A DNA stretch of 32,000 bases from Cyanothece sp. BG0011 (GCF_003013815.1 NZ_PRLH01000095.1:23943-55942), one strand, 5' to 3'. Positions 14,429-32,000 are shown, counted from the first letter of the stretch. Notes: generated by a model from the letters alone, not told the origin. Program-made: numbers and translations.

Positions 14429-15205
14429 CTAACTATCTGTTTTGAGAAAAATTGAGATAGATCCTGGAGATGGAGTATAAACTGTTTGTAGTTTGAAATG
14501 ACGTTCAGGATAGGTTCGTGCTAATATAGTTTGCAGGGCATTTGCTACATCTCCCTCATTTTGAGGATAATATCGAATCTGATCAGAAGATGCTCTATCA
14601 CGCTGTGGTTTAACTTCAATGACTGATGTAACACTACTCTCCCTTAACGCCTCTTTAATCTCAAAAGCGATTGTTTTTTGTTCAGTCCTTTCCCCATTAT
14701 AGAAAATTTGGATTTTATATTCACTCACCATATTGGCTTGTGGATATAGGTTTCGTATATTTTGTATAGCTGTTTCTATTTCTGATTTAACTTCTGGTTG
14801 AACCTTATTCTTCGCCCAAATAAGAATCATGATAGGTTCATCTACATGAGGAGACATCATCTCCAAGAAAGAGACAGCGTTTTTTTGTTTCTGTATATCC
14901 TGACTGGTAATCTCTTGATAGAACAGTTCAACATATTTAGTTTGTAAATTTTCTCTTCGTTGAACTCTTGCTAACTCCAATTGAGCATCAGTCAGTTTAT
15001 TTTGGGCTGTCGAAACTTGGTAACCAGCCAAACCGGTGATACCAGACAGAAGTAACAACAAAAGAGGAATAACTAGCTTCTCTGAAAATTCTAAAATTTT
15101 AGTGGTTAATGATTTCTCTTTAGAGACAAGCGCAAGTATTGTGTCAAGCTTTTTATCAGATTCGATCTGTTGTTTTTTGTCTACTCCATTAAATTGTCTA
15201 ACCAT
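14429..15205 (-). CDS. Hypothetical single-pass membrane protein
   Basis: The track ORF starts at a TTG (15241). An in-frame ATG at 15203-15205 has a strong AAGGAGG 8 nt upstream, giving MVRQFNGV and 258 aa. There is one TM segment (LVIPLLLLLLSGITGLAGY), then a coiled segment, then a roughly 90-aa alpha/beta C-terminal domain. I recognised no family. Confidence 0.6.
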   Translation of the reverse strand: MVRQFNGVDKKQQIESDKKLDTILALVSKEKSLTTKILEFSEKLVIPLLLLLLSGITGLAGYQVSTAQNKLTDAQLELARVQRRENLQTKYVELFYQEITSQDIQKQKNAVSFLEMMSPHVDEPIMILIWAKNKVQPEVKSEIETAIQNIRNLYPQANMVSEYKIQIFYNGERTEQKTIAFEIKEALRESSVTSVIEVKPQRDRASSDQIRYYPQNEGDVANALQTILARTYPERHFKLQTVYTPSPGSISIFLKTDS

Positions 15206-15434
15206 TACCGACCCCTCCTTTATCGATTCGTTAATCGACAAACTTAAACCAAAAGACCTCGATTTACACTTTGATTCTAGCTCTTTTGAATCAAGAATAA
15301 ATTAATTTTTTGTTCAATTATTGCTTATCTTATAATAAGAATTGTTAAAAAAATCAACAATAATAAAAAACTAAACAGTTACTTATTTTCAGCGTCCTAA
15401 CGATCTTTTTCCTTAAATTACCCTCTGACTTCAT

Positions 15435-16448: not shown

Positions 16449-17594
16449 TTATACAAAAGGTTTTATGGCTTCAACGACGGTACTGGCAGTTTGCAGATGA
16501 GAATCGGGATCATTAAGAGATTTGGCCATGTTGTAGAGTTTTCCTTCAATCTCGGTAATCGAACGACCACTCTGAAGAATCTGCTCTAGAAGATCATCGA
16601 GGGTATAACTTCTCAAGGTTGACCAATCTTGTCCACTACGATCCCAAGGATGAAAGAGTAGGGAGAATAGCAATATTTTAGCGCGTAATGGATTGGTATA
16701 TTGCATAATTTCTAAGCGAATCTCAAAAATATCATACTTAGGTTTAGCAGGAGAGGGCGCTGGAGTGGCTTGTACCTGTTTTAACTCAGTTACCATCTGT
16801 TCTGAGGTGATATCAATCACAGAGGTTTCAAAGGCTGAAGCCGGAGAGGGTTGCATATTTTGATAGTTGTCACTACTATTAATGGAAATAATTTGGGTAC
16901 TGTAGCTATTAGAACTGTCAGAAGAGAGCATATCTTCTTGTTGTAAATTATCGTATAAGCCACCCATTTGATTGAGAATCACTTTAGCAATGGCAAGATA
17001 TAAATTCTTTTTATTAATATTGTTAACTAATTGGATAAAGGCTTGTTTAAGGGCATTATAATCTGGATAAATTTCTAGGGTTTCCATGATTAAGTTGTTT
17101 AACCCATAATTTTTAATTCGGTTTAAATCATTTTCCCAACTGTTTTTAGTAATAGCATAAATTAATTTATGAATTCTAGCGGTTTCAGGATGATTGGATA
17201 AATTTCTCACTGCTTGTTCTATGAGAACACTACTATCAGAAACCTGAGTTTCTTTCGGATTAGTTGGCACTTCGATGACTTCGGTTTCTCGATGGAGTTC
17301 CCGATAAATCGGTCCTAGTTGTTCAACGATCGCTTTAGCCACACCAGCATACACTTTAGGACGGTTTAGAGTTTTGACTAATCTATATAAGGAAAGGGTC
17401 AGTTGTTCAAGGGTTTCTTGTTGCGTAATCAGTTCTTTAACTAAACTTTCCATCGACAAGCGATTGAGAACATTGAGATCGTTTTGCCAGGTTTTTTGAC
17501 AAATACAAAAGATTAATTTTTTGACTCTGATAGATTCGGGATGGTGTTCAAGATAGTGAACCGCTTGGTAAAATAAATCAGATGATAATTGCAT
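16449..17594 (-). CDS. Hypothetical protein built from three copies of an uncharacterised helical domain of about 90 aa
   Basis: The ORF is 381 aa. Residues 8-97 and 125-214 align without gaps at an offset of 117 (QAV..L..HPE..R..KLI......W.NDLN...LV..N....Y..AK.I..Q.G..Y). Residues about 289-381 form a divergent third copy. The gene ends 21 nt before the pentapeptide gene start. Confidence 0.7.
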   Translation of the reverse strand: MQLSSDLFYQAVHYLEHHPESIRVKKLIFCICQKTWQNDLNVLNRLSMESLVKELITQQETLEQLTLSLYRLVKTLNRPKVYAGVAKAIVEQLGPIYRELHRETEVIEVPTNPKETQVSDSSVLIEQAVRNLSNHPETARIHKLIYAITKNSWENDLNRIKNYGLNNLIMETLEIYPDYNALKQAFIQLVNNINKKNLYLAIAKVILNQMGGLYDNLQQEDMLSSDSSNSYSTQIISINSSDNYQNMQPSPASAFETSVIDITSEQMVTELKQVQATPAPSPAKPKYDIFEIRLEIMQYTNPLRAKILLFSLLFHPWDRSGQDWSTLRSYTLDDLLEQILQSGRSITEIEGKLYNMAKSLNDPDSHLQTASTVVEAIKPFV

Positions 17595-21907: not shown

Positions 21908-22987
21908 ATGGGTAACTATCATTCTGATCAACCGATTCAACCTGAGTTTGAGCCACACTTAGGGGATATCGACCCCCGCACCACAGAAACCCTTAACCCT
22001 GACATTGTTATCGACTCAAACCAAAATGAAACCGAAGAATCATCAGAAATTGCAGAAATTTCTATTGTCGAAGAAGCTGATCTTCCTTTGACCCATGACT
22101 GGTTTAACTTGGCTCGTAAATTACGGGGACAAAATCGAGAACTCCTCGATACCATTGTCACCCTAGAACAAGCTTTGGCTGAGTCACGACAACAACTGCA
22201 AGACTATCAAGAGCGATCGCGTCATCATAACGCTTTGCTATCCCAGCAAACCGCCCAACTTCAAAGCACCCAAGCCGAAAATAGTCATCTCCTCGAACAA
22301 CTACAAACCTCTCAAACTTGTCTACAACAACAGCAACTGAACCTAGACGCACTACAACAACAATTACAAGCCTCTCAAGAAGCCTTCGCTCAGTTAGAAC
22401 GAGAATGTGCCTTACTCAAAGAGGAAACCCTACAAAATAAACATCAGTTAGTTCTCAAAGAAAGACACATTAACGAGTTACAGCAACGCCTACAACGACA
22501 ACAACGCTACAGTTTACAGTACAAAGCCGCCTTAGATGAATGTTTGAGTAGTCATGGAAAAAAACGACCATCAGCCCAAGTTAACTCTACGGTTGAGCGT
22601 CCAACGGCTCCTAATGTGGTTTCTATTCAACCTTGGTCTGATTCTCCAGACAAGAAAATAGTGCCTAGTCTTACCCCTTCTTCTGTGGCATCAGAAGCCT
22701 CAAAACCGACCTCTGATGCCATTGATGACACTTTAGAAGAGTTATTTTCCCTCACCCCTGAACCCAAACCAGAGCCGACTCCGACGGATGAGCAAACCAT
22801 AACCGAGGAACCCACTCCCATGGATAGCCAAGAAAATAGTAGCCTTGAGGATCAGACGGCTACTTCTTCAAAGGGTTTATTAATGAGTAGTTCGGTGCCT
22901 TTTAGTTTCAGTATTGACCGTCATCGTAAAGAAGATGCTGCTAGGGAAAAGGTGGATTTACCTTCTTTTCTTCGTCGTCAATCTTAA
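21908..22987 (+). CDS. Q-rich coiled-coil protein with an acidic N-terminus, a P/T/E/S-rich linker and a C-terminal DLPSFLRR peptide
   Basis: The 359-aa ORF has about 150 aa of heptad-like Q/L/E sequence (LEQALAESRQQLQDYQERS...LQQQLQASQEAFAQLERECALLKEE). This is followed by a low-complexity linker and the terminal sequence KVDLPSFLRRQS. Confidence 0.7.
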   Translation: MGNYHSDQPIQPEFEPHLGDIDPRTTETLNPDIVIDSNQNETEESSEIAEISIVEEADLPLTHDWFNLARKLRGQNRELLDTIVTLEQALAESRQQLQDYQERSRHHNALLSQQTAQLQSTQAENSHLLEQLQTSQTCLQQQQLNLDALQQQLQASQEAFAQLERECALLKEETLQNKHQLVLKERHINELQQRLQRQQRYSLQYKAALDECLSSHGKKRPSAQVNSTVERPTAPNVVSIQPWSDSPDKKIVPSLTPSSVASEASKPTSDAIDDTLEELFSLTPEPKPEPTPTDEQTITEEPTPMDSQENSSLEDQTATSSKGLLMSSSVPFSFSIDRHRKEDAAREKVDLPSFLRRQS

Positions 22988-24144: not shown

Positions 24145-24387
24145 TACTGTTTGTCTCCTGCTTGTTTTTCTAAATCAATTATCCCCTGTAGAATCGACAT
24201 GAGGATAGTGGCTTCACAGGGAGTCCAACCTATCAGTTTACCCTGTCCCTTTCCAGACTAAAAAAATCCTTGTCTGTTATGGCTTTTTTTAAGCTTTAAT
24301 TCAGATTTTATCTATAGTAATGTTATATTGAGTCTTGGCCTTTTAATGTCTTTTCGTACGGCTCAAAGAAAAAATTCGGAACGCGTA

Positions 24388-25041
24388 ATGGAAATCAAAT
24401 TTAATTCAGGACAAGTCAGTTTAATAACCATCACTCCCAATGCTGAAAAATTAATCGCTTATTGTGCTAGAGTTAGCAGTAAAAATCAAGAGAATCCTAA
24501 GATAGAAAAATTACTAAGATATTGTCTTAAACATGGTCATTGGTCAATTTTTGAACAAGCATCTATGACGGTGGAAATACAATGTCCTCTTGCGATTGCT
24601 ATTCAAATTTTAAGACACCGATCGTTCTGTTTCCAACAATTTAGTAAGAGATATCAAGAAGTAGAAAAAGATAATTTTGCTTATTTACCAGAAATCAGAT
24701 TACAAGATTATAAAAATAGACAAAACAGTATTATTCCTGACAATGATGAGTTACAGAACAAATACAACGAAAAAATTAGCAAGTTATATGATGACATTTT
24801 TAACCTTTATAAAGAAATGATTGAGGATGGTGTAGCCAAAGAATGCGCCCGTTTTGTGTTACCTGAATCAGTGATGACTAAACTGTATATGACGGGTAAT
24901 ATTCGCAGTTTTATTCATTATCTTCAAGTTCGGACTTCCAATGATGCACAAAAAGAACATAGAGAGGTTGCTAATGCTGTGGGTGAAATCTTAAAAAAAG
25001 AATGTCCGATTATTTGGAATGCTGCTTTTGAGGGAGTTTAA
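24388..25041 (+). CDS. thyX: Flavin-dependent thymidylate synthase ThyX
   Basis: The ThyX signature RHRX7S is present as RHRSFCFQQFSKRY (nt 24613-24654), and the C-terminal region has the pattern RSFIHYLQVRT. The track starts at a TTG (24328). The ATG at 24388 (MEIKFNSG) is the more plausible start. Confidence 0.9.
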   Translation: MEIKFNSGQVSLITITPNAEKLIAYCARVSSKNQENPKIEKLLRYCLKHGHWSIFEQASMTVEIQCPLAIAIQILRHRSFCFQQFSKRYQEVEKDNFAYLPEIRLQDYKNRQNSIIPDNDELQNKYNEKISKLYDDIFNLYKEMIEDGVAKECARFVLPESVMTKLYMTGNIRSFIHYLQVRTSNDAQKEHREVANAVGEILKKECPIIWNAAFEGV

Positions 25042-25077
25042 GAAACTGTTCCTAAAGAAACCATAACAATAAACTTT

Positions 25078-25142
25078 GTAGGGTGGGCAAGGTTTTCAAG
25101 GATGAAGTTAGTTTAGAAAAGTTTTTGACTTGCCCATCCTAC
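25078..25142. repeat. Small hairpin-type dispersed repeat with 14-bp arms (GTAGGGTGGGCAAG / CTTGCCCATCCTAC) and a 37-nt loop
   Basis: The inverted repeat has one G-T mismatch. It belongs to the same family, with the same loop length, as 3062-3124. It lies between thyX and dut. Confidence 0.7.
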
Positions 25143-25188
25143 CATCTACCGTCTTAAAATTCTATTTATCAACAGTCTCTAAACAATC

Positions 25189-25617
25189 ATGAAATTAAAA
25201 ATAAAACGATTAAACGAGAATGCGATTCTACCCAACTATGCTCATTCTGATGATTCAGGAATGGACTTATTTTCGATTGAAGAAATAGCCATAAAACCAG
25301 GAACCCAAGAACTGATTAAAACGGGAATAGCTATAGAATTACCCGAAAATACAGAGGCACAAATTAGGCCCAGAAGTGGATTAGCTTTAAAACATGGTAT
25401 TACGGTATTAAATACACCTGGAACCATCGATCAAGGCTATCGCGGAGAAATTGGTGTTATTTTAATTAATCATAGTAACCTCACCTTTTTTATTGAAACA
25501 GGGATGAAAATTGCTCAATTAATTATTATGCCGGTTATTCGATGCGAAATTGAAGAAGTCCAAGAATTATCAATAACTCAAAGAAATGAAGGGGGTTTTG
25601 GTTCAACAGGTGTTTGA
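25189..25617 (+). CDS. dut: dUTP diphosphatase (trimeric dUTPase)
   Basis: The 142-aa ORF has dUTPase motifs: [37 protein letters not shown] and the C-terminal [10 protein letters not shown]. Confidence 0.93.
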
Positions 25618-25686: not shown

Positions 25687-26895
25687 TTAAATATCTTCGG
25701 GATTAACCGGAAAATAGAACTCAATTCCTTGATCAATTAAATGTTGATTATTAGCTAAAATTTCTTTCTTGAAGTTCCAAGCTAATACATAATAAATGTC
25801 AGGAAGTTCTGTTAATTCTTTTTCGATAATAATAGGAATGTGCATTCCAGGTGAATAAAGTCCGCGTCTGAGTTCATTTTTTTCGACTAAATAATCAAGG
25901 TATTGTGTCCCTACACCGAAGTAATTTAACATAGTATTACCTTTCACCGGTGCGCCAAAACCCCACACAGTTTTACCTTCTTTTTTAGCCTTATCTAAGT
26001 AGGCTAAGTTATCAGCTTTCATCTGTTCAATACGTTTCGCAAAGTCTAGATAAGTGGAGAATTCATTGCTTTTTTCGTCTACTTCTGCTTGACGCATTTG
26101 TTGTAAGCGATCGCTTGGTTTTTTCTGTCCTTGATGAGTGACAAACCCAATAATAGATCCACCGTGAATGGGAGATAAATAAGCATCAAACATGGCTAAA
26201 CCATGACGATTTAATAAGACTTCAATGGTGTTTAAGTTGTAATATAAAAGATGTTCGTGATAGATTTGATCAAAGGCTAAATTATCAACAATGCGCTTCA
26301 TATAAAGGAATTGAACCACAAAAACACCATTATCAGTTAAAGCTTCTCTTATTCCTTCAGTCACAGAATGTAACTCTTCTAAATGGAAAAAGACACCGGC
26401 TGCATTGATAGCATGAAATTTGCGATCGAGGCGTTTAACCACCTCTAAATTAAAGAAATCATTAACCGTGGGAACCCCTGCTGCTTCGGCTATTTTTGCA
26501 GTGGTTTTTGAAGATTCTACCCCTAAGACATCATACCCCAAGGCTTGAAAATGTTTCAGTTGTGTTCCATCATTTGAACCAATATCTAAAACAGACTTAT
26601 TAGGGGTATCTTTAAAGAAACGATCATCCACTTCATGGGCAACATTTTTAAAGTGTTCACTGAGGGATTTTGTCACCCCAGACAGATAGGTATGATCCCC
26701 AAACATGATCTCTTTTTTAACGGTATAATCTAACTGTACCGTTCCACAATCATGACAGTATAAAACCCGTAAAGGATAAAAGGGTTCTTTTCCTACTTCT
26801 TCAGGTTTTAAGAAATTATTACACCAGGGTTGATGTCCTAAATCAATCGCTAATTCTAAGTTAGTCGAATCACAAACACGACAAATAGTATTCAA
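25687..26895 (-). CDS. SAM-dependent C-methyltransferase of the TylCIII/TcaB9 type (Zn-ribbon + class I MT + C-methyltransferase C-terminal domain)
   Basis: The 402-aa ORF has an N-terminal four-Cys zinc-ribbon pattern (CRVCDS ... CHDCG), SAM motif I (VLDIGSNDGT) and a long C-terminal domain (WGFGAPVKGNTMLNYFG) typical of NDP-hexose C-methyltransferases. Confidence 0.82.
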   Translation of the reverse strand: MNTICRVCDSTNLELAIDLGHQPWCNNFLKPEEVGKEPFYPLRVLYCHDCGTVQLDYTVKKEIMFGDHTYLSGVTKSLSEHFKNVAHEVDDRFFKDTPNKSVLDIGSNDGTQLKHFQALGYDVLGVESSKTTAKIAEAAGVPTVNDFFNLEVVKRLDRKFHAINAAGVFFHLEELHSVTEGIREALTDNGVFVVQFLYMKRIVDNLAFDQIYHEHLLYYNLNTIEVLLNRHGLAMFDAYLSPIHGGSIIGFVTHQGQKKPSDRLQQMRQAEVDEKSNEFSTYLDFAKRIEQMKADNLAYLDKAKKEGKTVWGFGAPVKGNTMLNYFGVGTQYLDYLVEKNELRRGLYSPGMHIPIIIEKELTELPDIYYVLAWNFKKEILANNQHLIDQGIEFYFPVNPEDI

Positions 26896-26984
26896 GGTTA
26901 AAGTTTCCTCCCGGTTAATTAGTTATGTCTTCAATTATTAAAACATTTCGTTGGCATTTTCTCCAATTCCTCATTCTGTATAGT

Positions 26985-28553
26985 TTATATATTTTCTAAA
27001 GATTGATAATAATCTGTGAAAATTTTTTCAAATACTTGAGGATCTTGGCGACTGAAATAGGGGACTTTAATCAATTTTGTTTGTGTTTCATTGGTTACAT
27101 AACTATCATAAGTTTCTTGAGGTACTTTCTCCATAAGCACCGTTTTATCCCCTAAAGATAACTGAATTTTTGAATCTCTATCATAATAGTTAACTTGATA
27201 ACCTTCTAAGCGAAGATATAAACTACTAAAAGTCCAAATCCATTGTTCAGTGGCTATATTATCGTCTTTATCTAAGTAAATAGCGGTGACATTTTTATCT
27301 GGTTTTTCTAGTGCTTTGGCCATCTGACGAGCAAATTTTATAGGAGGATGTAAGCTATCAATTTGAGCTTGACGAACTTTATTATATCCTGTTAAATAAG
27401 CCCCGGATACTCTCGGACCATCGTGGGTTGCTGTATAGGTAGGTTCAGGAGTAATCGCAATAAATGGAATATGGTTAAGGATGTGAATGGAAACAATTTG
27501 TAGACAAACACTCAAAGCAATAAACGTCAAGGATATTCCTTGAAATTGTTTTTTAGTTAATTTATCTTTAATTTCTAAAGCCATCCTAGCCAAAATAAAG
27601 GGGAGAAAGATTATCCCAGGAATCAAGTATTTCGGACTGGTTAATGTCGGTAATGGATATAAAATAATCAGACTAGATACTATTAATATAAGGGGTTTCC
27701 ATTGTTTAGATTTAATACTTTGAATAACAAAATAAATCAAAGCAATGATTAATAAAAACCAAATTAGCAAATTAGTAATTGTCCATAGGTTAGCCCAGGA
27801 TTCAGCCATTGTCCAGTTGGCCGCTCCTTCTTCGTGGCTTTTAGCTATGTTAATTAACTGCTGGGGGTTAAAAATATCAGTTAACCAAAAGATGCCTAGA
27901 AGAACAAAACTTGAACCAGCATAGATACCATAGTTTTTAAACCTTTGTTTTAGGGATTTATCAAACAGCATTAAGCCCCAAATCAAGGGAAAAGCCAAAA
28001 CAAAATCAAAGCGAAAAAATATCGCTGTCGTTAAGGTAATTCCTAAGATAAAATAGCGAATATTGTTCCAAAGTTGTATGGATTTTAGAGGACTTTTTTG
28101 CCAAAATAAAAATAGTGAGGCAATAGCCATAGGAACCATGGCATAGACGGTAGAATTATAATAGAGTCCAGAAAAAAATAGTTCAGGAAAAACAATTAAA
28201 AACGAAAAACAAAGAATTATATTCAGACGTTTTTGAGCAAATAAATAAACCGCCGTTAAGAGAATAAAGATATTCGTAGCCCCTAAAATTTGAGGTATAA
28301 TAAATAAAAGTTTCGGTTGATCAAGCCAATTCATCAACCCAAGATTCACTTCATAGGTTAAAGGTTGCCAATAGTATCGATAAACTAAATCTTTTCCTTT
28401 ATAGGCAAAGTTAACTATCCCTTCTAATTGTTCAACGTCGTCTCCTTCCCAACCGACGCGATCGCCAAAAAATAAAAATAAGGCGAGAAGTAAAACATAA
28501 AAAATAATCGACGACAATAAAACAGATTTTTTCGTTTTTAAATTAACATCCAT
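26985..28553 (-). CDS. Polytopic membrane protein with a C-terminal soluble domain; candidate GT-C-fold glycosyltransferase
   Basis: The 522-aa ORF has about 10-11 hydrophobic segments. An acidic motif (WEGDDVEQ) opens the first long loop, and a soluble C-terminal domain of about 150 aa follows. It sits in an operon with a polyprenyl-phosphate glycosyltransferase. I recognised no family signature. Confidence 0.55.
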   Translation of the reverse strand: MDVNLKTKKSVLLSSIIFYVLLLALFLFFGDRVGWEGDDVEQLEGIVNFAYKGKDLVYRYYWQPLTYEVNLGLMNWLDQPKLLFIIPQILGATNIFILLTAVYLFAQKRLNIILCFSFLIVFPELFFSGLYYNSTVYAMVPMAIASLFLFWQKSPLKSIQLWNNIRYFILGITLTTAIFFRFDFVLAFPLIWGLMLFDKSLKQRFKNYGIYAGSSFVLLGIFWLTDIFNPQQLINIAKSHEEGAANWTMAESWANLWTITNLLIWFLLIIALIYFVIQSIKSKQWKPLILIVSSLIILYPLPTLTSPKYLIPGIIFLPFILARMALEIKDKLTKKQFQGISLTFIALSVCLQIVSIHILNHIPFIAITPEPTYTATHDGPRVSGAYLTGYNKVRQAQIDSLHPPIKFARQMAKALEKPDKNVTAIYLDKDDNIATEQWIWTFSSLYLRLEGYQVNYYDRDSKIQLSLGDKTVLMEKVPQETYDSYVTNETQTKLIKVPYFSRQDPQVFEKIFTDYYQSLENI

Positions 28554-28607
28554 AATTCAACTCAATTGCTTAATCCAAGCTCAGAAAATAGACGATTCTC
28601 CTAATTT

Positions 28608-29981
28608 TTATTTCACTAACCGATATTGAGTTTCCACAAAACTAGCAATTTTCTGTCCTTCACGAATAGCATAATTAGTGCCTCGATCTTCGGGATAAAT
28701 TTGAGCCATAGTGGAAATATAAAACCCTGGTAAAGGGGTTTCATGACTCGGAATTAAACGACTATAATGACGAACCACAATGGGTTGAGAATAACGGGCG
28801 CGCCAGAAATGATAATCAATAATCCAATCACGACTAAACTCAGGAAACATTCTTTTTAAGTGAGGAATGGCATAATTTAAAGCTTCTTGATCACTCATTT
28901 GATAGAGTGTTTCGCTTTCGGGTAAATATTTAGATAAATAAACAATATGTTGTCCCCCGTAGGTTTCTTTGGGTTCAAAATTTGTGTGTTCAATCACCCC
29001 CACAAAGGGAAAATTAGGATCATTAACATTGAGCCAATAAGTCTCAGATAAACTACGATTGAGTTGCAGCACTAAACAAACATTCGCCAAATAGTCCACA
29101 GAGCGAAGTTTTTGAATATAATCAGAACTCAAATGATCGTCGAGGAGATCAGCGATAATGGGTAAAGCGGGAGTAGCGATCACCCCATCGGCCTCGATGA
29201 TACCTTGATTCGTTTTGACCCCTGTGAGGCGATCGCTTTCTACTATCACCCCTTCTACGGTGATGTTGGTTTTAATTTGACCCCCACGAAAGGCGATCGC
29301 TTCTGCCAACTTTTGGGCCAAGGCAGCGAACCCCCCGCGATAATAAGCCAACATTTCCGCGCCGTCTTTGTTACGACTACCGCCGCGTAGTTTAACTTTA
29401 TTCCAAAACCAAACCGCCGAAACCTGATCAGCAAAGGGGCCAAACTTACCCCTGAGCAACGGTTCCCACACAACCCGATACACCTGGGAACCACACACCT
29501 TTAACAACCATTCTTTAGCTGTCAAGGACTCTAGTTTGCGCCAATTTTTGATCCGACGGGCCCACAATGCAAACAACCCTAAACGAAGACGATTAAACCA
29601 ATTTAAGGGCTTAAAAGTTAATAAATCTAGGGGAGAACTTAACTTAAAGAAATTGTTAGCGTAGTAGATGCCGGTGCGAGTGGGGCGATAAATCACTTGA
29701 TCTTGGGCTTCTAATTCCTCCACTAAGGCCATGACATATTTATCATTGGTAAACCAGTGATGATAGAACTTTTCTAAGGGTTGGCCATTGACTTCAAAAC
29801 TACCCGCTAAACCCCCCACTTCCTTATCTCTTTCTAAGACAGTGACTCTGTATCCTTTGCGGGTGAGTTCGTAAGCGGCCGTTAACCCGGTAAAACCACC
29901 GCCAATGATCACAATATGGGGGGGGTTTCCCTGAGTCGGGGAGAATTTTGAGGTTGAGGGCAAAGAAGGATTAAATGTCAT
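28608..29981 (-). CDS. FAD/NAD(P)-binding oxidoreductase (amine-oxidase / phytoene-desaturase / UDP-galactopyranose-mutase-like fold)
   Basis: The 457-aa ORF has an N-terminal dinucleotide-binding motif (IVIIGGGFTGLTAAYELTRKGYRVTVLERDKEVGGLA) and a C-terminal flavin-anchoring region (GFYISTMAQIYPEDRGTNYAIREG). Confidence 0.85.
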   Translation of the reverse strand: MTFNPSLPSTSKFSPTQGNPPHIVIIGGGFTGLTAAYELTRKGYRVTVLERDKEVGGLAGSFEVNGQPLEKFYHHWFTNDKYVMALVEELEAQDQVIYRPTRTGIYYANNFFKLSSPLDLLTFKPLNWFNRLRLGLFALWARRIKNWRKLESLTAKEWLLKVCGSQVYRVVWEPLLRGKFGPFADQVSAVWFWNKVKLRGGSRNKDGAEMLAYYRGGFAALAQKLAEAIAFRGGQIKTNITVEGVIVESDRLTGVKTNQGIIEADGVIATPALPIIADLLDDHLSSDYIQKLRSVDYLANVCLVLQLNRSLSETYWLNVNDPNFPFVGVIEHTNFEPKETYGGQHIVYLSKYLPESETLYQMSDQEALNYAIPHLKRMFPEFSRDWIIDYHFWRARYSQPIVVRHYSRLIPSHETPLPGFYISTMAQIYPEDRGTNYAIREGQKIASFVETQYRLVK

Positions 29982-30037
29982 AATTAAAAAGAGATATTTA
30001 ACGGATATCTATAAGGGCAAATCTTTGGTTTAAAGGA

Positions 30038-31024
30038 CTAAACCAAGTGTTTATCATTATTAATCGATTGTTGGGTCTCGAAAGAATAGTTTTTAAACCC
30101 TAGTCGTTCTCGAACTAAGTATAGAGGACGTTCTTTGTTTTCGCGGTAAATGCGGCCAATATACTCACCAATGACTCCTAAAAAGACTAATTGAATGCCA
30201 CCAATAAACAGGGTTGAGATAAACAAAAGGGTCCAACCCGGAACCCAAATGGAGGTAAACAATCGTAACACTAGGGCGTAAAGAATACCAATGATAGACA
30301 GGACAAAAGTAAACAGACCCACCCAAATGGCCATTCTCAGGGGAATCAGAGAAAAGGATAAAATTCCATCCGCCGCAAAGCGTACCATTTTCCACAAGGG
30401 ATATTTACTCACCCCGGCCAGTCGTTGTGAGCGTTGGTAAGGAACTCCGATTTGTCGAAACCCCACCCAACTCACCATCCCTCTGAGGAAGCGATCGCGT
30501 TCTGGCATGGTTTTTAAGGCTTCTACTACCCGACGATCCATTAAGCGGAAGTCTCCGGTATCGAGGGGAATGGCAACATCGGAAAGACCGTTAATAATGC
30601 GATAAAAGGCTTTAGCACTCCAGAGTTTAAACCAGGTTTCTCCTTGGCGATCGGTTCGCACGCCGTAGGCCACATCATAACCTTGATACCAATAATCGAT
30701 CATGTCTTTGATGACTTCGGGGGGATCTTGGAGATCGGCATCGATTAACACGACGACATCCCCCGAAACATGGTCAAGTCCGGCGGTTACCGCCATTTGA
30801 TGGCCAAAGTTACGGGACAGCAAAATCACTTTAACCCGTTCTTCTTTTTGTTGTAGAGTGCGTAGGTGTTGGGCGGTTTGATCTTGACTCCCATCATCGA
30901 TATAAATAATTTCCCATTGGGGGGTTATCTCATCTAAAACCCCCACTAGGCGTTGATGGGTCGCTTGAATCACTTCTTGTTCGTTATAACAGGGGACAAC
31001 AACTGAGATCAACAACGGTTTCAC
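30038..31024 (-). CDS. GT2 polyprenyl-phosphate glycosyltransferase (GtrB / ArnC / DPM1-like)
   Basis: The 328-aa ORF has VVVPCYNE, YIDDGSQD, the DxD-type motif LIDADLQDPPE, and GDFRLMDRRVV. Two C-terminal TM helices flank IGEYIGRIY, as in GtrB-family enzymes. Confidence 0.92.
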   Translation of the reverse strand: MKPLLISVVVPCYNEQEVIQATHQRLVGVLDEITPQWEIIYIDDGSQDQTAQHLRTLQQKEERVKVILLSRNFGHQMAVTAGLDHVSGDVVVLIDADLQDPPEVIKDMIDYWYQGYDVAYGVRTDRQGETWFKLWSAKAFYRIINGLSDVAIPLDTGDFRLMDRRVVEALKTMPERDRFLRGMVSWVGFRQIGVPYQRSQRLAGVSKYPLWKMVRFAADGILSFSLIPLRMAIWVGLFTFVLSIIGILYALVLRLFTSIWVPGWTLLFISTLFIGGIQLVFLGVIGEYIGRIYRENKERPLYLVRERLGFKNYSFETQQSINNDKHLV

Positions 31025-31050
31025 TCCTCCTCCTCATCAGTTTAGTTCCT

Positions 31051-31923
31051 TTATTTTGCCTTTTGGGGAGTACAAAATAAGGTATGTTCTTTCATTTCGA
31101 CATCATAACCTAAGGCTTCTAGGAACGGTTGAACCCCTAATAAGGATGATTTTCCGGTTTTCACGTCTTCATGAATATCAATACAGAGATAGGGATGATA
31201 ACGATCTAAGGTGGTTTTTGCCCCTTGTAACCCGTAGAGTTCAAAGCCTTCGATATCAATTTTCATGGCTTTGGGTTCAATATTCATGGTGGCCACATAA
31301 TCATCAATGGTCATCACTTCGACTAAATAACTGTCGTGTTGACGATGACGGTTGCTCTCTGGGGTACTGAGGGTTGACACATCAGAAGCCCAAAAAAAGT
31401 CTTTTTCTGAGGTATATTCTAAAAATTCTGCTTTTCCCGGTTCATCGCTCACGGCAGCCGGCACAATGGTTATGTTTTCGATGTGGTTGAGGTCTACCAT
31501 TTGTTTGAGAAAGGTTTGGGTTTTTCGGGCGGGTTCAAAGGCATGGACTTGACCTTTTTTGCCCACTGCTTTGGCTAGGGGTAAGCTAATCACCCCAAAC
31601 GCGGCCCCAATATCGAGAACCACATCCCCATACTCAATGTTGGAGCATAACCAGTCAGCGCAATGGGTTTCGATCATAAAGCTGAGATGATCTTCTTCTC
31701 CTGGCATCAAACAATGTTTGTAGACTTTCAGGGGGTCAATGGGGGCTAAAGCATCGATCCGATTAATGCGACATTGAACCACTGAGCCTGATTGAATAAA
31801 ATCTAGCATTGCTTGGGTAAATTCCCGTTTTTGGGCGTGAAGCACCCGATCAATGGCTTCTAATGTGTCTACAATACCGATAACTCGACGTAATTTTGTA
31901 ATGAGATAATCTTTAATGTCCAT
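31051..31923 (-). CDS. FkbM family methyltransferase
   Basis: The 290-aa ORF has VVLDIGAAFGVISLPLAKAVGKKGQVHAFEP, AAVSDEPGKAEF and the MKIDIEGFELYGLQGA motif characteristic of the Methyltransf_21/FkbM family. Confidence 0.85.
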   Translation of the reverse strand: MDIKDYLITKLRRVIGIVDTLEAIDRVLHAQKREFTQAMLDFIQSGSVVQCRINRIDALAPIDPLKVYKHCLMPGEEDHLSFMIETHCADWLCSNIEYGDVVLDIGAAFGVISLPLAKAVGKKGQVHAFEPARKTQTFLKQMVDLNHIENITIVPAAVSDEPGKAEFLEYTSEKDFFWASDVSTLSTPESNRHRQHDSYLVEVMTIDDYVATMNIEPKAMKIDIEGFELYGLQGAKTTLDRYHPYLCIDIHEDVKTGKSSLLGVQPFLEALGYDVEMKEHTLFCTPQKAK

Positions 31924-32000
31924 AAAAGTGTTTTATAAATAAATCGTTTATGATTCGGCTTAATGATTTAGATAGACTCACTGAACTATTTTTAATGTTC

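Follow-up and report, generated by a model that had tools for sequence, protein, structure and literature searches.

What does a flavoprotein without an assigned function do between the two core enzymes of an apparent lipid-carrier glycosylation system, and do the methyltransferases encoded on either side belong to the same system? The question is raised by a cluster of five genes at positions 25687–31923 of a 32,000-nt stretch of DNA from Cyanothece sp. BG0011, referred to here as the window. The cluster encodes an FkbM-family methyltransferase, a GtrB-type family 2 glycosyltransferase (GT2), a PRK07233-family flavoprotein, a 522-aa polytopic protein with a predicted GT-C fold, and a zinc-ribbon C-methyltransferase (Table 1). 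We note that functional statements throughout are based on homology, predicted structure, and gene neighborhood. Our preferred reading, to which we give a probability of about one half, is that the cluster encodes a Gtr-like extracytoplasmic envelope-glycosylation system with extra tailoring enzymes. The logic of a lipid-carrier synthase working with a GT-C transferase is known; what appears to be new is the joining of a PRK07233 flavoprotein and two methyltransferases to a Gtr/Arn-type system. The author of an initial annotation of this DNA did not know the combination as a described pathway, and we likewise found no paper on a module of GT2, flavoprotein, and GT-C protein or on the role of the flavoprotein.

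The flavoprotein recurs beside lipid-carrier glycosylation genes

The flavoprotein is a regular neighbor of this GT2 subfamily and of flippase-like and GT-C-like proteins in many phyla. It has at least 7314 homologs, with about 65% identity in Gemmatimonadota, Acidobacteriota, Nitrospirota, and cyanobacteria. We sampled gene neighborhoods in at least 80 metagenome loci from soil, water, and sediment, found by scanning contigs with two invariant flavoprotein peptides; genes in these loci were called by a simple longest-open-reading-frame (ORF) procedure, and transmembrane segments were counted with a hydropathy window. A GtrB-like GT2 lay at most three genes upstream on the same strand in 25 of the 36 loci with enough upstream sequence, and 22 of the 23 loci having both flanks carried a GT2 and/or a protein with at least seven transmembrane segments within three genes. 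The metagenome GT2 genes beside the flavoprotein scored approximately 380–455 bits against the GT2 of the window.

When the gene between GT2 and flavoprotein was about 330 aa long, it carried PF03706, the lysyl-phosphatidylglycerol synthase transmembrane (MprF-like) domain, in all eight cases, and when it was about 130 aa long, it was GtrA in three of four. Among same-strand neighbors (n = 98), the most common families were PF03706 (14), PMT_2 (11), and GtrA (5). A polytopic neighbor of 500–700 aa with at least seven transmembrane segments was usually adjacent and was of diverse affiliation (PMT_2, PMT, PTPS_related, DUF6798, or family-less). Cross-phylum identity was approximately 60%–65% for the flavoprotein and 60% for the GT2, whereas the polytopic partner varied, a pattern that fits one conserved donor delivered to lineage-specific acceptors. 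Some flavoprotein homologs of 650–790 aa (P0039, P0043, P0046, P0047, and P0049) were fused to PF03706.

Since GT2, flavoprotein, GT-C protein, and C-methyltransferase are syntenic in seven related genomes and the pairing of GT2 with flavoprotein recurs across phyla, the arrangement is not due to chance. The initial annotation had taken the embedded flavoenzyme to be meaningful, and its recurrence beside GT2, flippase-like, and GT-C genes, sometimes as a PF03706 fusion, bears this out. A lipid-sugar synthase, a flippase, and a GT-C transferase together form a main route by which bacterial surface antigens are diversified after polymerization. A family of thousands of flavoproteins, conserved at about 65% identity and tied to these components, points to an unrecognized step in three-component systems of the hexose type.

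Two loci deserve separate mention. A Sphingobium metagenome-assembled genome (MAG; L018:6562-11134) encodes a GT2 (410 bits), a flavoprotein (610 bits), and a weak GT-C homolog in the order found in the window, so that the three-gene order, including the rare GT-C family, recurs outside cyanobacteria. One cyanobacterial contig (L022:10001-12367) carries a fusion gene of flavoprotein and PF03706 with no GT2 nearby.

A GtrB-type synthase and a putative GT-C transferase

The assignment of the GT2 as a GtrB-type polyprenyl-phosphate glycosyltransferase is well supported by homology. It matched PF00535 at 125 bits (residues 7–169) and aligned over residues 5–311 with the solved Synechocystis GtrB, sll0501 (5EKP; 326.7 bits, E 1.4e-96); matches to ArnC structures scored 160–173 bits. 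Its translation contains a DXD-type motif (D95-A96-D97) and C-terminal hydrophobic segments at about residues 220–283, with windows beginning at 220, 242, and 264 in a crude Kyte–Doolittle scan. The lipid-loading GtrB/ArnC type proposed in the initial annotation thus stands on a 327-bit match to sll0501 and a C-terminal hydrophobic anchor. Synechocystis GtrB is said to make undecaprenyl phosphate (Und-P)-glucose in vitro, reportedly a 2016 finding of Ardiccioni et al. Since the GT2 subfamily is conserved (about 400 bits) in loci that have no methyltransferase, its donor is probably a common, unmethylated nucleotide sugar. If methyl groups do sit on the sugar loaded by the GT2, they would therefore be added after loading.

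The 522-aa protein is 100% identical to a BG0011 protein that NCBI annotates as hypothetical. It had no Pfam match at E 0.01, and its sole NCBIfam match was weak (NF047440, 20.5 bits versus a cut-off of 200). An AlphaFold2 model built with 22 homologs had a predicted local distance difference test (pLDDT) score of 90 and showed a first transmembrane helix at residues 8–29, short helices at 38–47 and 49–57, further membrane helices to about residue 353, and a C-terminal alpha/beta domain at 355–522; the sequence itself contains nine hydrophobic windows. Almost all of the top Foldseek matches in the PDB were GT-C enzymes, comprising ArnT, ALG12, ALG3, PIGU, EmbB, Pmt1/2, Pmt4, PimE, and AftA, with ArnT the best (E 1e-3, TM-score 0.48).

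Directly after the first transmembrane helix, all 22 homologs, which range down to 23% identity, carry D31, G37, and D38, and conservation of D39 is 90% or higher. The catalytic Asp of solved GT-C enzymes, and that proposed for the GT136 enzyme ORF12 (D31), likewise lies just after the first transmembrane helix (PMC11127046). A GT-C fold with conserved acidic residues in this position is supported by the confident model, in agreement with the GT-C-like character noted in the initial annotation, and we propose that the protein is a periplasmic transferase.

The GT-C family is rare: a set of 1.84 billion proteins contains 290 representatives of it. A hidden Markov model (HMM) of the family gave two weak matches only among the polytopic partners in the metagenome loci, which suggests that those partners come from different GT-C lineages. 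Distant homologs (about 24% identity) in Sphingomonas and on a metagenome contig (L015:7903-9795, minus strand; L020:894-2339) adjoin a HAD-UbiA fusion. This fusion is the architecture of the polyprenyl-phosphoribose synthase (PPPRS) of pentofuranose three-component systems (PMC11127046), and the neighborhood suggests that the small GT-C family may be related to GT136.

Candidate roles of the flavoprotein

The flavoprotein belongs to a family without an assigned function, titled "hypothetical protein" by NCBI (NF005560, PRK07233; 532 bits versus a cut-off of 252, residues 22–452), and matched PF01593 at 134 bits. Its N-terminal dinucleotide-binding motif, GGGFTGL at residues 27–33, is of the GxGxxG type. 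No signal peptide or transmembrane segment was found in a hydropathy scan of the translation, and the protein is probably cytoplasmic and peripheral to the membrane. We infer that it may act on a lipid-linked intermediate at the cytoplasmic face.

Its AlphaFold2 model (pLDDT 86.6) was most similar to rice phytoene desaturase (5MOG; TM-score 0.81, E 4e-28), followed by protoporphyrinogen oxidases (about 0.75) and amine oxidases, within a range of 0.71–0.77. Sequence identity to the phytoene desaturase and protoporphyrinogen oxidase structures was merely 17%–19%. The flavoprotein resembles the plant phytoene desaturase and protoporphyrinogen oxidase in fold, in the N-terminal GxGxxG motif, and in having no transmembrane helix, but its partner genes are those of glycosylation and not of carotenoid or heme synthesis. 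With phytoene desaturase, CrtI, and HpnE, the fold alone is shared; scores against the curated desaturase and oxidase models were far below the cut-offs (TIGR02731, 38 versus 569 bits; crtI_fam, 56 versus 238; HpnE, 88 versus 283).

Two further candidates among sugar-active flavoenzymes fared no better. The initial annotation had raised the possibility of ring contraction by a mutase-like flavoenzyme, which does not agree with the structural ranking: UDP-galactopyranose mutase structures ranked 47th to 50th (TM-score 0.71–0.72), behind phytoene desaturase as the best match. The Escherichia coli mutase aligned by sequence to the FAD (flavin adenine dinucleotide)-binding part alone (residues 24–229, E 1e-7), and the GLF family was not among the Pfam matches of the flavoprotein. 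On the ranking, we rejected a mutase as the leading option. The flavoprotein is also unlikely to be a DprE1 itself. DprE1 has a fold of the vanillyl-alcohol-oxidase type, unlike the phytoene-desaturase/amine-oxidase fold seen here, and no reductase is a consistent neighbor. A DprE1-like action is not made less probable by this.

The fold raises the alternative that the flavoprotein alters the polyprenyl chain, by saturation, desaturation, isomerization, or hydration, and leaves the sugar untouched, so that the system would draw on a dedicated carrier pool. This would be a sub-variant of the general model of a Gtr-like system, and we regard it as rather unlikely. Plant phytoene desaturase, the nearest structure, holds a long isoprenoid in a hydrophobic tunnel, and relatives in the CrtI/PDS superfamily catalyze all four of these reactions on isoprenoid chains. 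Chain editing needs no reductase partner, in agreement with the neighborhood data, and fusion to an MprF-like lipid-handling domain suits a lipid substrate. However, the fit to protoporphyrinogen oxidases and amine oxidases is almost as good, so that the fold does not fix the substrate, and every curated carotenoid-desaturase model scored far under its cut-off. Further, no bacterial system of the Gtr type is known to us in which the carrier lipid is modified.

A carotenoid-desaturase-like fold could also indicate that the target of glycosylation and methylation is not an envelope polysaccharide but a carotenoid, a hopanoid, or another membrane isoprenoid, the product being something like a myxol glycoside with a methylated sugar. 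Cyanobacterial carotenoid glycosides do bear O-methylated deoxy-sugars, and the model searches returned matches to HpnE, CrtI, CruG, and HpnB. These matches are weak and far below cut-offs (CruG, 29 versus 600 bits; HpnB, 24 versus 379; HpnE as given above), while the GT2 is far closer to GtrB and ArnC. The constant GtrA-like or MprF-like and GT-C partners mark Und-P-sugar systems, and the module is common in nonphotosynthetic soil phyla. On the model scores and partner genes, we rejected this function, which we consider very improbable.

The methyltransferases as a cyanobacterial addition

The C-methyltransferase has a complete three-part architecture (PF08421, 85 bits; PF13489, 47 bits; PF08484, 171 bits) and aligned over its full length with MtmC (4RV9; 240 bits), TcaB9 (3NDI; 198 bits), and KijD1 (190 bits). 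With these enzymes and TylCIII, it shares the three domains, the zinc ribbon, the S-adenosylmethionine (SAM) motif, and a Tyr-x-Glu-His motif. Aligned to the residues of TcaB9, it keeps Cys5, Cys8, Cys47, Cys50, the SAM motif DIGSNDG, His171, and Tyr212-x-Glu214-His215. The catalytic residues of TcaB9 are reportedly His181, Tyr222, Glu224, His225, and Tyr76 (Bruender and Holden), in a numbering from which the chain of 3NDI is offset by 2. The window enzyme departs from the TylCIII/TcaB9 group in that His68 takes the place of TcaB9 Tyr76, its gene lies within a lipid-carrier system, and its sequence is unusually conserved among cyanobacteria (84%–96% identity in Crocosphaera, Rippkaea, Aphanothece, Snowella, Lusitaniella, Nostoc, and Calothrix), more so than that of any other protein in the cluster. 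The complete C-terminal PF08484 domain, which binds nucleotide in TcaB9, points to a nucleoside diphosphate (NDP)-sugar substrate.

The FkbM-family protein is probably a sugar O-methyltransferase (PF05050, 64 bits versus a cut-off of 22.7; TIGR01444, 109.5 versus 37.7). Its identity is 46%, measured along the entire protein, to the FkbM protein encoded just upstream of the C-methyltransferase of Nostoc sp. FACHB-110, and 55%–58% to two FkbM proteins of a Crocosphaera cluster described below. For all the cluster proteins with Pfam families, the assignments expected from the initial annotation hold (PF08421/PF13489/PF08484, PF01593/PF13450, PF00535, and PF05050).

Gene order was compared among cyanobacterial loci. 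The order GT2–flavoprotein–GT-C–(Methyltransf_24)–C-methyltransferase is syntenic in seven related genomes. A unicellular cyanobacterium (strain SU2), Aphanothece sacrum, and five diatom endosymbionts share (GT2)–flavoprotein–GT-C–Methyltransf_24–C-methyltransferase. The Methyltransf_24 gene is intact in SU2 and A. sacrum (L006:7268-8383; L001:12056-13153) and consists of frame-shifted fragments in all five diatom-endosymbiont (spheroid-body) genomes (L007–L010 and L012, about 11.8–12.9 kb). Around the decayed gene in these five reduced genomes, GT2, flavoprotein, GT-C, and C-methyltransferase genes are intact. In the BG0011 window, Methyltransf_24 is gone altogether, an 89-nt gap lies in this place, and FkbM heads the cluster. 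Of the five genes in the initial annotation, four keep their order in these syntenic relatives; FkbM is absent from them, and a Methyltransf_24 gene is found in its stead. Retention of the cluster in strongly reduced genomes of nitrogen-fixing diatom endosymbionts suggests that the modified glycan matters for the envelope.

Other cyanobacterial loci contain parts of this arrangement. A Microcystaceae MAG has GT2–flavoprotein–GT-C with GtrA and no methyltransferase. A Crocosphaera sp. cluster has FkbM–FkbM–GT2 (81% identical)–C-methyltransferase (96% identical) and no flavoprotein; next to it, in divergent orientation, are the genes for WecG and for two other polytopic proteins, one of them PTPS_related and one of 590 aa with 10 transmembrane segments. 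In Nostoc sp. FACHB-110, the C-methyltransferase ortholog (85% identical) lies directly after FkbM and directly before a short-chain dehydrogenase/reductase (SDR), at a locus that also encodes a nucleotidyltransferase, a GHMP kinase, SIS and HAD proteins, GT4 glycosyltransferases, and an ABC-transporter protein; no GtrB-type GT2, flavoprotein, or GT-C protein was found at this locus. In Rippkaea PCC 8801, a 91%-identical ortholog stands alone. The high identity of the C-methyltransferase despite wholly differing contexts could be due to very strong constraint, or cyanobacteria may have exchanged the gene recently.

These loci bear directly on whether the methyltransferases belong to the system at all. 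In no locus do the methyltransferases depend on the flavoprotein, nor does the flavoprotein depend on them. Sequence comparisons indicate that the C-methyltransferase and the putative O-methyltransferase travel together as a separate cyanobacterial layer. Two unrelated modules could thus be merely adjacent, with GT2, flavoprotein, and GT-C protein being self-contained and the methyltransferases serving a polysaccharide assembled elsewhere through a methylated NDP-sugar, such as a GDP-6-deoxy-3-C-methyl-hexose of the virenose or vinelose kind. The Nostoc locus, with both methyltransferases among NDP-sugar genes, fits such a C- and O-methylated sugar, and the solitary Rippkaea ortholog and the fully conserved nucleotide-binding PF08484 domain are in keeping with it. 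Moreover, none of the 80 metagenome flavoprotein loci listed has a C-methyltransferase or FkbM homolog (0/80), and we take this to mean that the flavoenzyme is not there to supply the C-methyltransferase. Speaking for a shared function, however, methyltransferases repeatedly lie beside a GT2 or GT-C-like gene in the Crocosphaera group, with the C-methyltransferase beside one and/or the other in three architectures. In the window, they flank the other three genes on the same strand at gaps of just 26 and 89 nt, and the endosymbiont genomes have retained four of the genes jointly. We consider mere adjacency somewhat unlikely.

The opposite possibility is the closest coupling of all five proteins, in which the flavoenzyme would oxidize Und-P-hexose to a keto-sugar, the C-methyltransferase would methylate the neighboring carbon while the sugar is on the lipid, FkbM would O-methylate it, and the GT-C protein would transfer it. 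Among the larger ORFs of the window, neither a 4,6-dehydratase nor any different origin for a keto-sugar was found, the probably unmethylated donor of the GT2 would mean that methylation follows loading, the C-methyltransferase retains His171 and the catalytic Tyr-x-Glu-His, and DprE1 and an undP-Ribf epimerase offer precedents for chemistry on lipid-linked sugars. Several results nevertheless make this scheme improbable. The Crocosphaera FkbM–FkbM–GT2–C-methyltransferase cluster has no flavoprotein, a C-methyltransferase is missing from the flavoprotein loci listed for other phyla, the flavoprotein has a phytoene-desaturase/protoporphyrinogen-oxidase-like fold, no ketoreductase is present to complete the sugar, and the C-methyltransferase retains its NDP-binding domain. 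Oxidation on the lipid followed by C-methylation is possible but not favored. Of the pathway outlined in the initial annotation, the lipid-carrier frame of GT2 and GT-C protein is retained, while a flavoenzyme-derived keto-sugar feeding the C-methyltransferase is at odds with the independence of these genes elsewhere, the fold, and the NDP-binding domain.

Proposed pathway and relation to known systems

In the preferred reading of a Gtr-like envelope-glycosylation system, the GT2 would load undecaprenyl phosphate at the cytoplasmic face with a common hexose drawn from a UDP-sugar, a step well supported by homology. The flavoprotein would then edit the lipid-linked intermediate before export, as gene neighborhoods, fusions, and fold suggest; the leading candidate chemistries are oxidation of the sugar by the logic of DprE1, perhaps with a quinone as acceptor, or a change to the polyprenyl chain. 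A flippase encoded elsewhere may export the donor, a task for which related loci appear to use GtrA or an MprF-like protein. The GT-C protein, judging by fold and motif, would attach the sugar to an envelope glycan particular to the lineage, for example lipopolysaccharide, exopolysaccharide, or S-layer. The C-methyltransferase and FkbM, as a cyanobacterial pair, may decorate the same glycan, with the C-methyltransferase most likely acting on an NDP-4-keto sugar from enzymes encoded elsewhere and less likely on a lipid-linked sugar. Tailoring of a lipid-linked monosaccharide before export has precedents in the conversion of undP-Ribf to undP-Xylf by an SDR and in DprE1/DprE2 (PMC11127046).

Several observations weigh against this reading. 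The Foldseek similarity of the GT-C model to known enzymes is moderate (TM-score 0.48, E 1e-3), and the fold of the flavoprotein is closest to enzymes acting on C–C bonds of isoprenoids and tetrapyrroles, not on sugar hydroxyls. The window contains no flippase gene, and no consistent reductase or redox partner was found among the 98 same-strand neighbors of the flavoprotein, unlike the pairing of DprE1 with DprE2. Since the C-methyltransferase occurs without GT2, flavoprotein, or GT-C protein in Nostoc and Rippkaea, its link to the system could be purely positional. Finally, a dUTPase-sized ORF beside the C-methyltransferase gene in one endosymbiont hints at a conserved flank, which suggests that synteny in the Crocosphaera group is probably due in part to shared ancestry.

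The cluster resembles several known systems in part. Like GtrA/GtrB/GtrC O-antigen glucosylation and Gram-positive systems of the CsbB/GtcA/YfhO type, it has a GtrB-type GT2 with C-terminal transmembrane helices and an adjacent, lineage-variable polytopic transferase with a GT-C fold, and related loci carry GtrA after the GT2. Unlike these systems, it has a flavoprotein between synthase and transferase, a position conserved across phyla, and two added methyltransferases. The window has no flippase gene, many related loci have the MprF-like PF03706 in place of GtrA, and the GT-C protein lies outside Pfam families and NCBIfam cut-offs. The route to aminoarabinose-modified lipid A (ArnC/ArnD/ArnEF/ArnT) is alike in that, among solved structures, only GtrB is closer to the GT2 than ArnC, and ArnT is the best match of the GT-C model. 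In that pathway, the deformylase ArnD edits the sugar while it is lipid-linked, whereas the proposed editing enzyme here is a flavoprotein, and ArnA/ArnB-type sugar-nucleotide genes are not present.

The mycobacterial decaprenyl-phosphoryl-arabinose route (DprE1/DprE2) and the three-component pentofuranose systems described by Kelly et al. in 2024 (PMC11127046) share with our proposal the redox editing of a polyprenyl-phosphate monosaccharide before GT-C transfer. The latter systems comprise PPPRS, a flippase, GT136, and an optional SDR epimerase, and Kelly et al. stated that, in systems for O-polysaccharide side-chain glycosylation, they were aware of no further epimerases (PMC11127046). Unlike theirs, the donor in the window would come from a GtrB-type GT2 and a nucleotide sugar, not from a UbiA-type phosphoribosyltransferase. 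Unlike DprE1/DprE2, the flavoprotein has a phytoene-desaturase/amine-oxidase fold, and a DprE2-like reductase is not consistently present. A 2024 PNAS commentary assigns "FAD-dependent oxidoreductases" to phosphoribosyl pyrophosphate (PRPP)-derived pentofuranose systems of Bacillus and names no GtrB-type synthase alongside them. The methyltransferases, in turn, recall routes to GDP-6-deoxy-3-C-methyl-hexoses such as virenose and vinelose. Unlike the usual setting of NDP-hexose 3-C-methyltransferases, dehydratase and ketoreductase genes are lacking from both the window and the Crocosphaera cluster; SDRs flank the Nostoc ortholog.

To our knowledge, editing of a lipid-linked sugar has been described for pentofuranose donors only, by DprE1/DprE2, a tuberculosis drug target, and by one SDR epimerase. 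The most far-reaching version of our proposal is a widespread four-part Gtr-type system in which a flavoenzyme edits Und-P-hexose or its lipid, with on-lipid C- and O-methylation added in the Crocosphaera/Cyanothece group, including the diatom endosymbionts. We think this version quite unlikely in full. If true, an edited donor methylated on the lipid would give a branched, methylated envelope sugar made as in no known pathway.

Cluster layout and the remainder of the window

Our ORF calls reproduced exactly the coordinates of the five minus-strand genes in the initial annotation, with intergenic gaps of 26, 56, 54, and 89 nt from FkbM to C-methyltransferase (Table 1). No terminator-like site was found in any of the four gaps in a promoter and terminator consensus scan, which makes co-transcription as an operon plausible. 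The scan was otherwise uninformative, neither kind of site being above shuffled expectation. The cluster may start in the 77 nt that remain between FkbM and the window edge, where stops occur in two reading frames and the third frame is open throughout. A weak promoter-like match on the minus strand (31922–31893) is of a type not enriched over shuffles.

Table 1. Features of the five-gene cluster and its upstream side in the Cyanothece sp. BG0011 window
Feature	Length (aa)	Position	Strand	Basis or remark
FkbM-family SAM methyltransferase (first gene)	290	31051..31923	-	PF05050, TIGR01444
GtrB-type GT2	328	30038..31024	-	PF00535, full-length similarity to sll0501
PRK07233-family FAD/NAD(P)-binding flavoprotein	457	28608..29981	-	PF01593/PF13450, NF005560
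GT-C-fold polytopic membrane protein (predicted)	522	26985..28553	-	Predicted model; outside every Pfam family
Zinc-ribbon C-methyltransferase, TylCIII/TcaB9/MtmC type (last gene)	402	25687..26895	-	PF08421 + PF13489 + PF08484
AT-rich stretch, FkbM upstream side to window edge		31924..32000	.	Possible promoter region

A family scan found no NDP-sugar 4,6-dehydratase among the larger ORFs of the window, and no small GtrA-like ORF with three to four transmembrane segments was found in it, TspO being the sole ORF of such shape. The initial annotation was correct on both absences. The remainder of the window is housekeeping in character and encodes MutS, GyrA, a Pst phosphate transporter, a two-component pair, TspO, pentapeptide proteins, an aminotransferase, ThyX, and dUTPase. 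The genes for ThyX, the flavin-dependent thymidylate synthase, and dUTPase are adjacent (24328–25617, plus strand) and convergent with the C-methyltransferase gene. The G+C fraction is about 0.34–0.36 across 24–29 kb and about 0.44–0.45 in the GT2 and flavoprotein genes and at 19–23 kb, and it rises to 0.49 at 23–24 kb. Three sizeable ORFs had no Pfam family (21908–22987, plus strand; 14429–15241 and 16449–17594, minus strand), one of which encodes a 359-aa glutamine-rich protein, probably a coiled coil, with a proline/threonine-rich tail.

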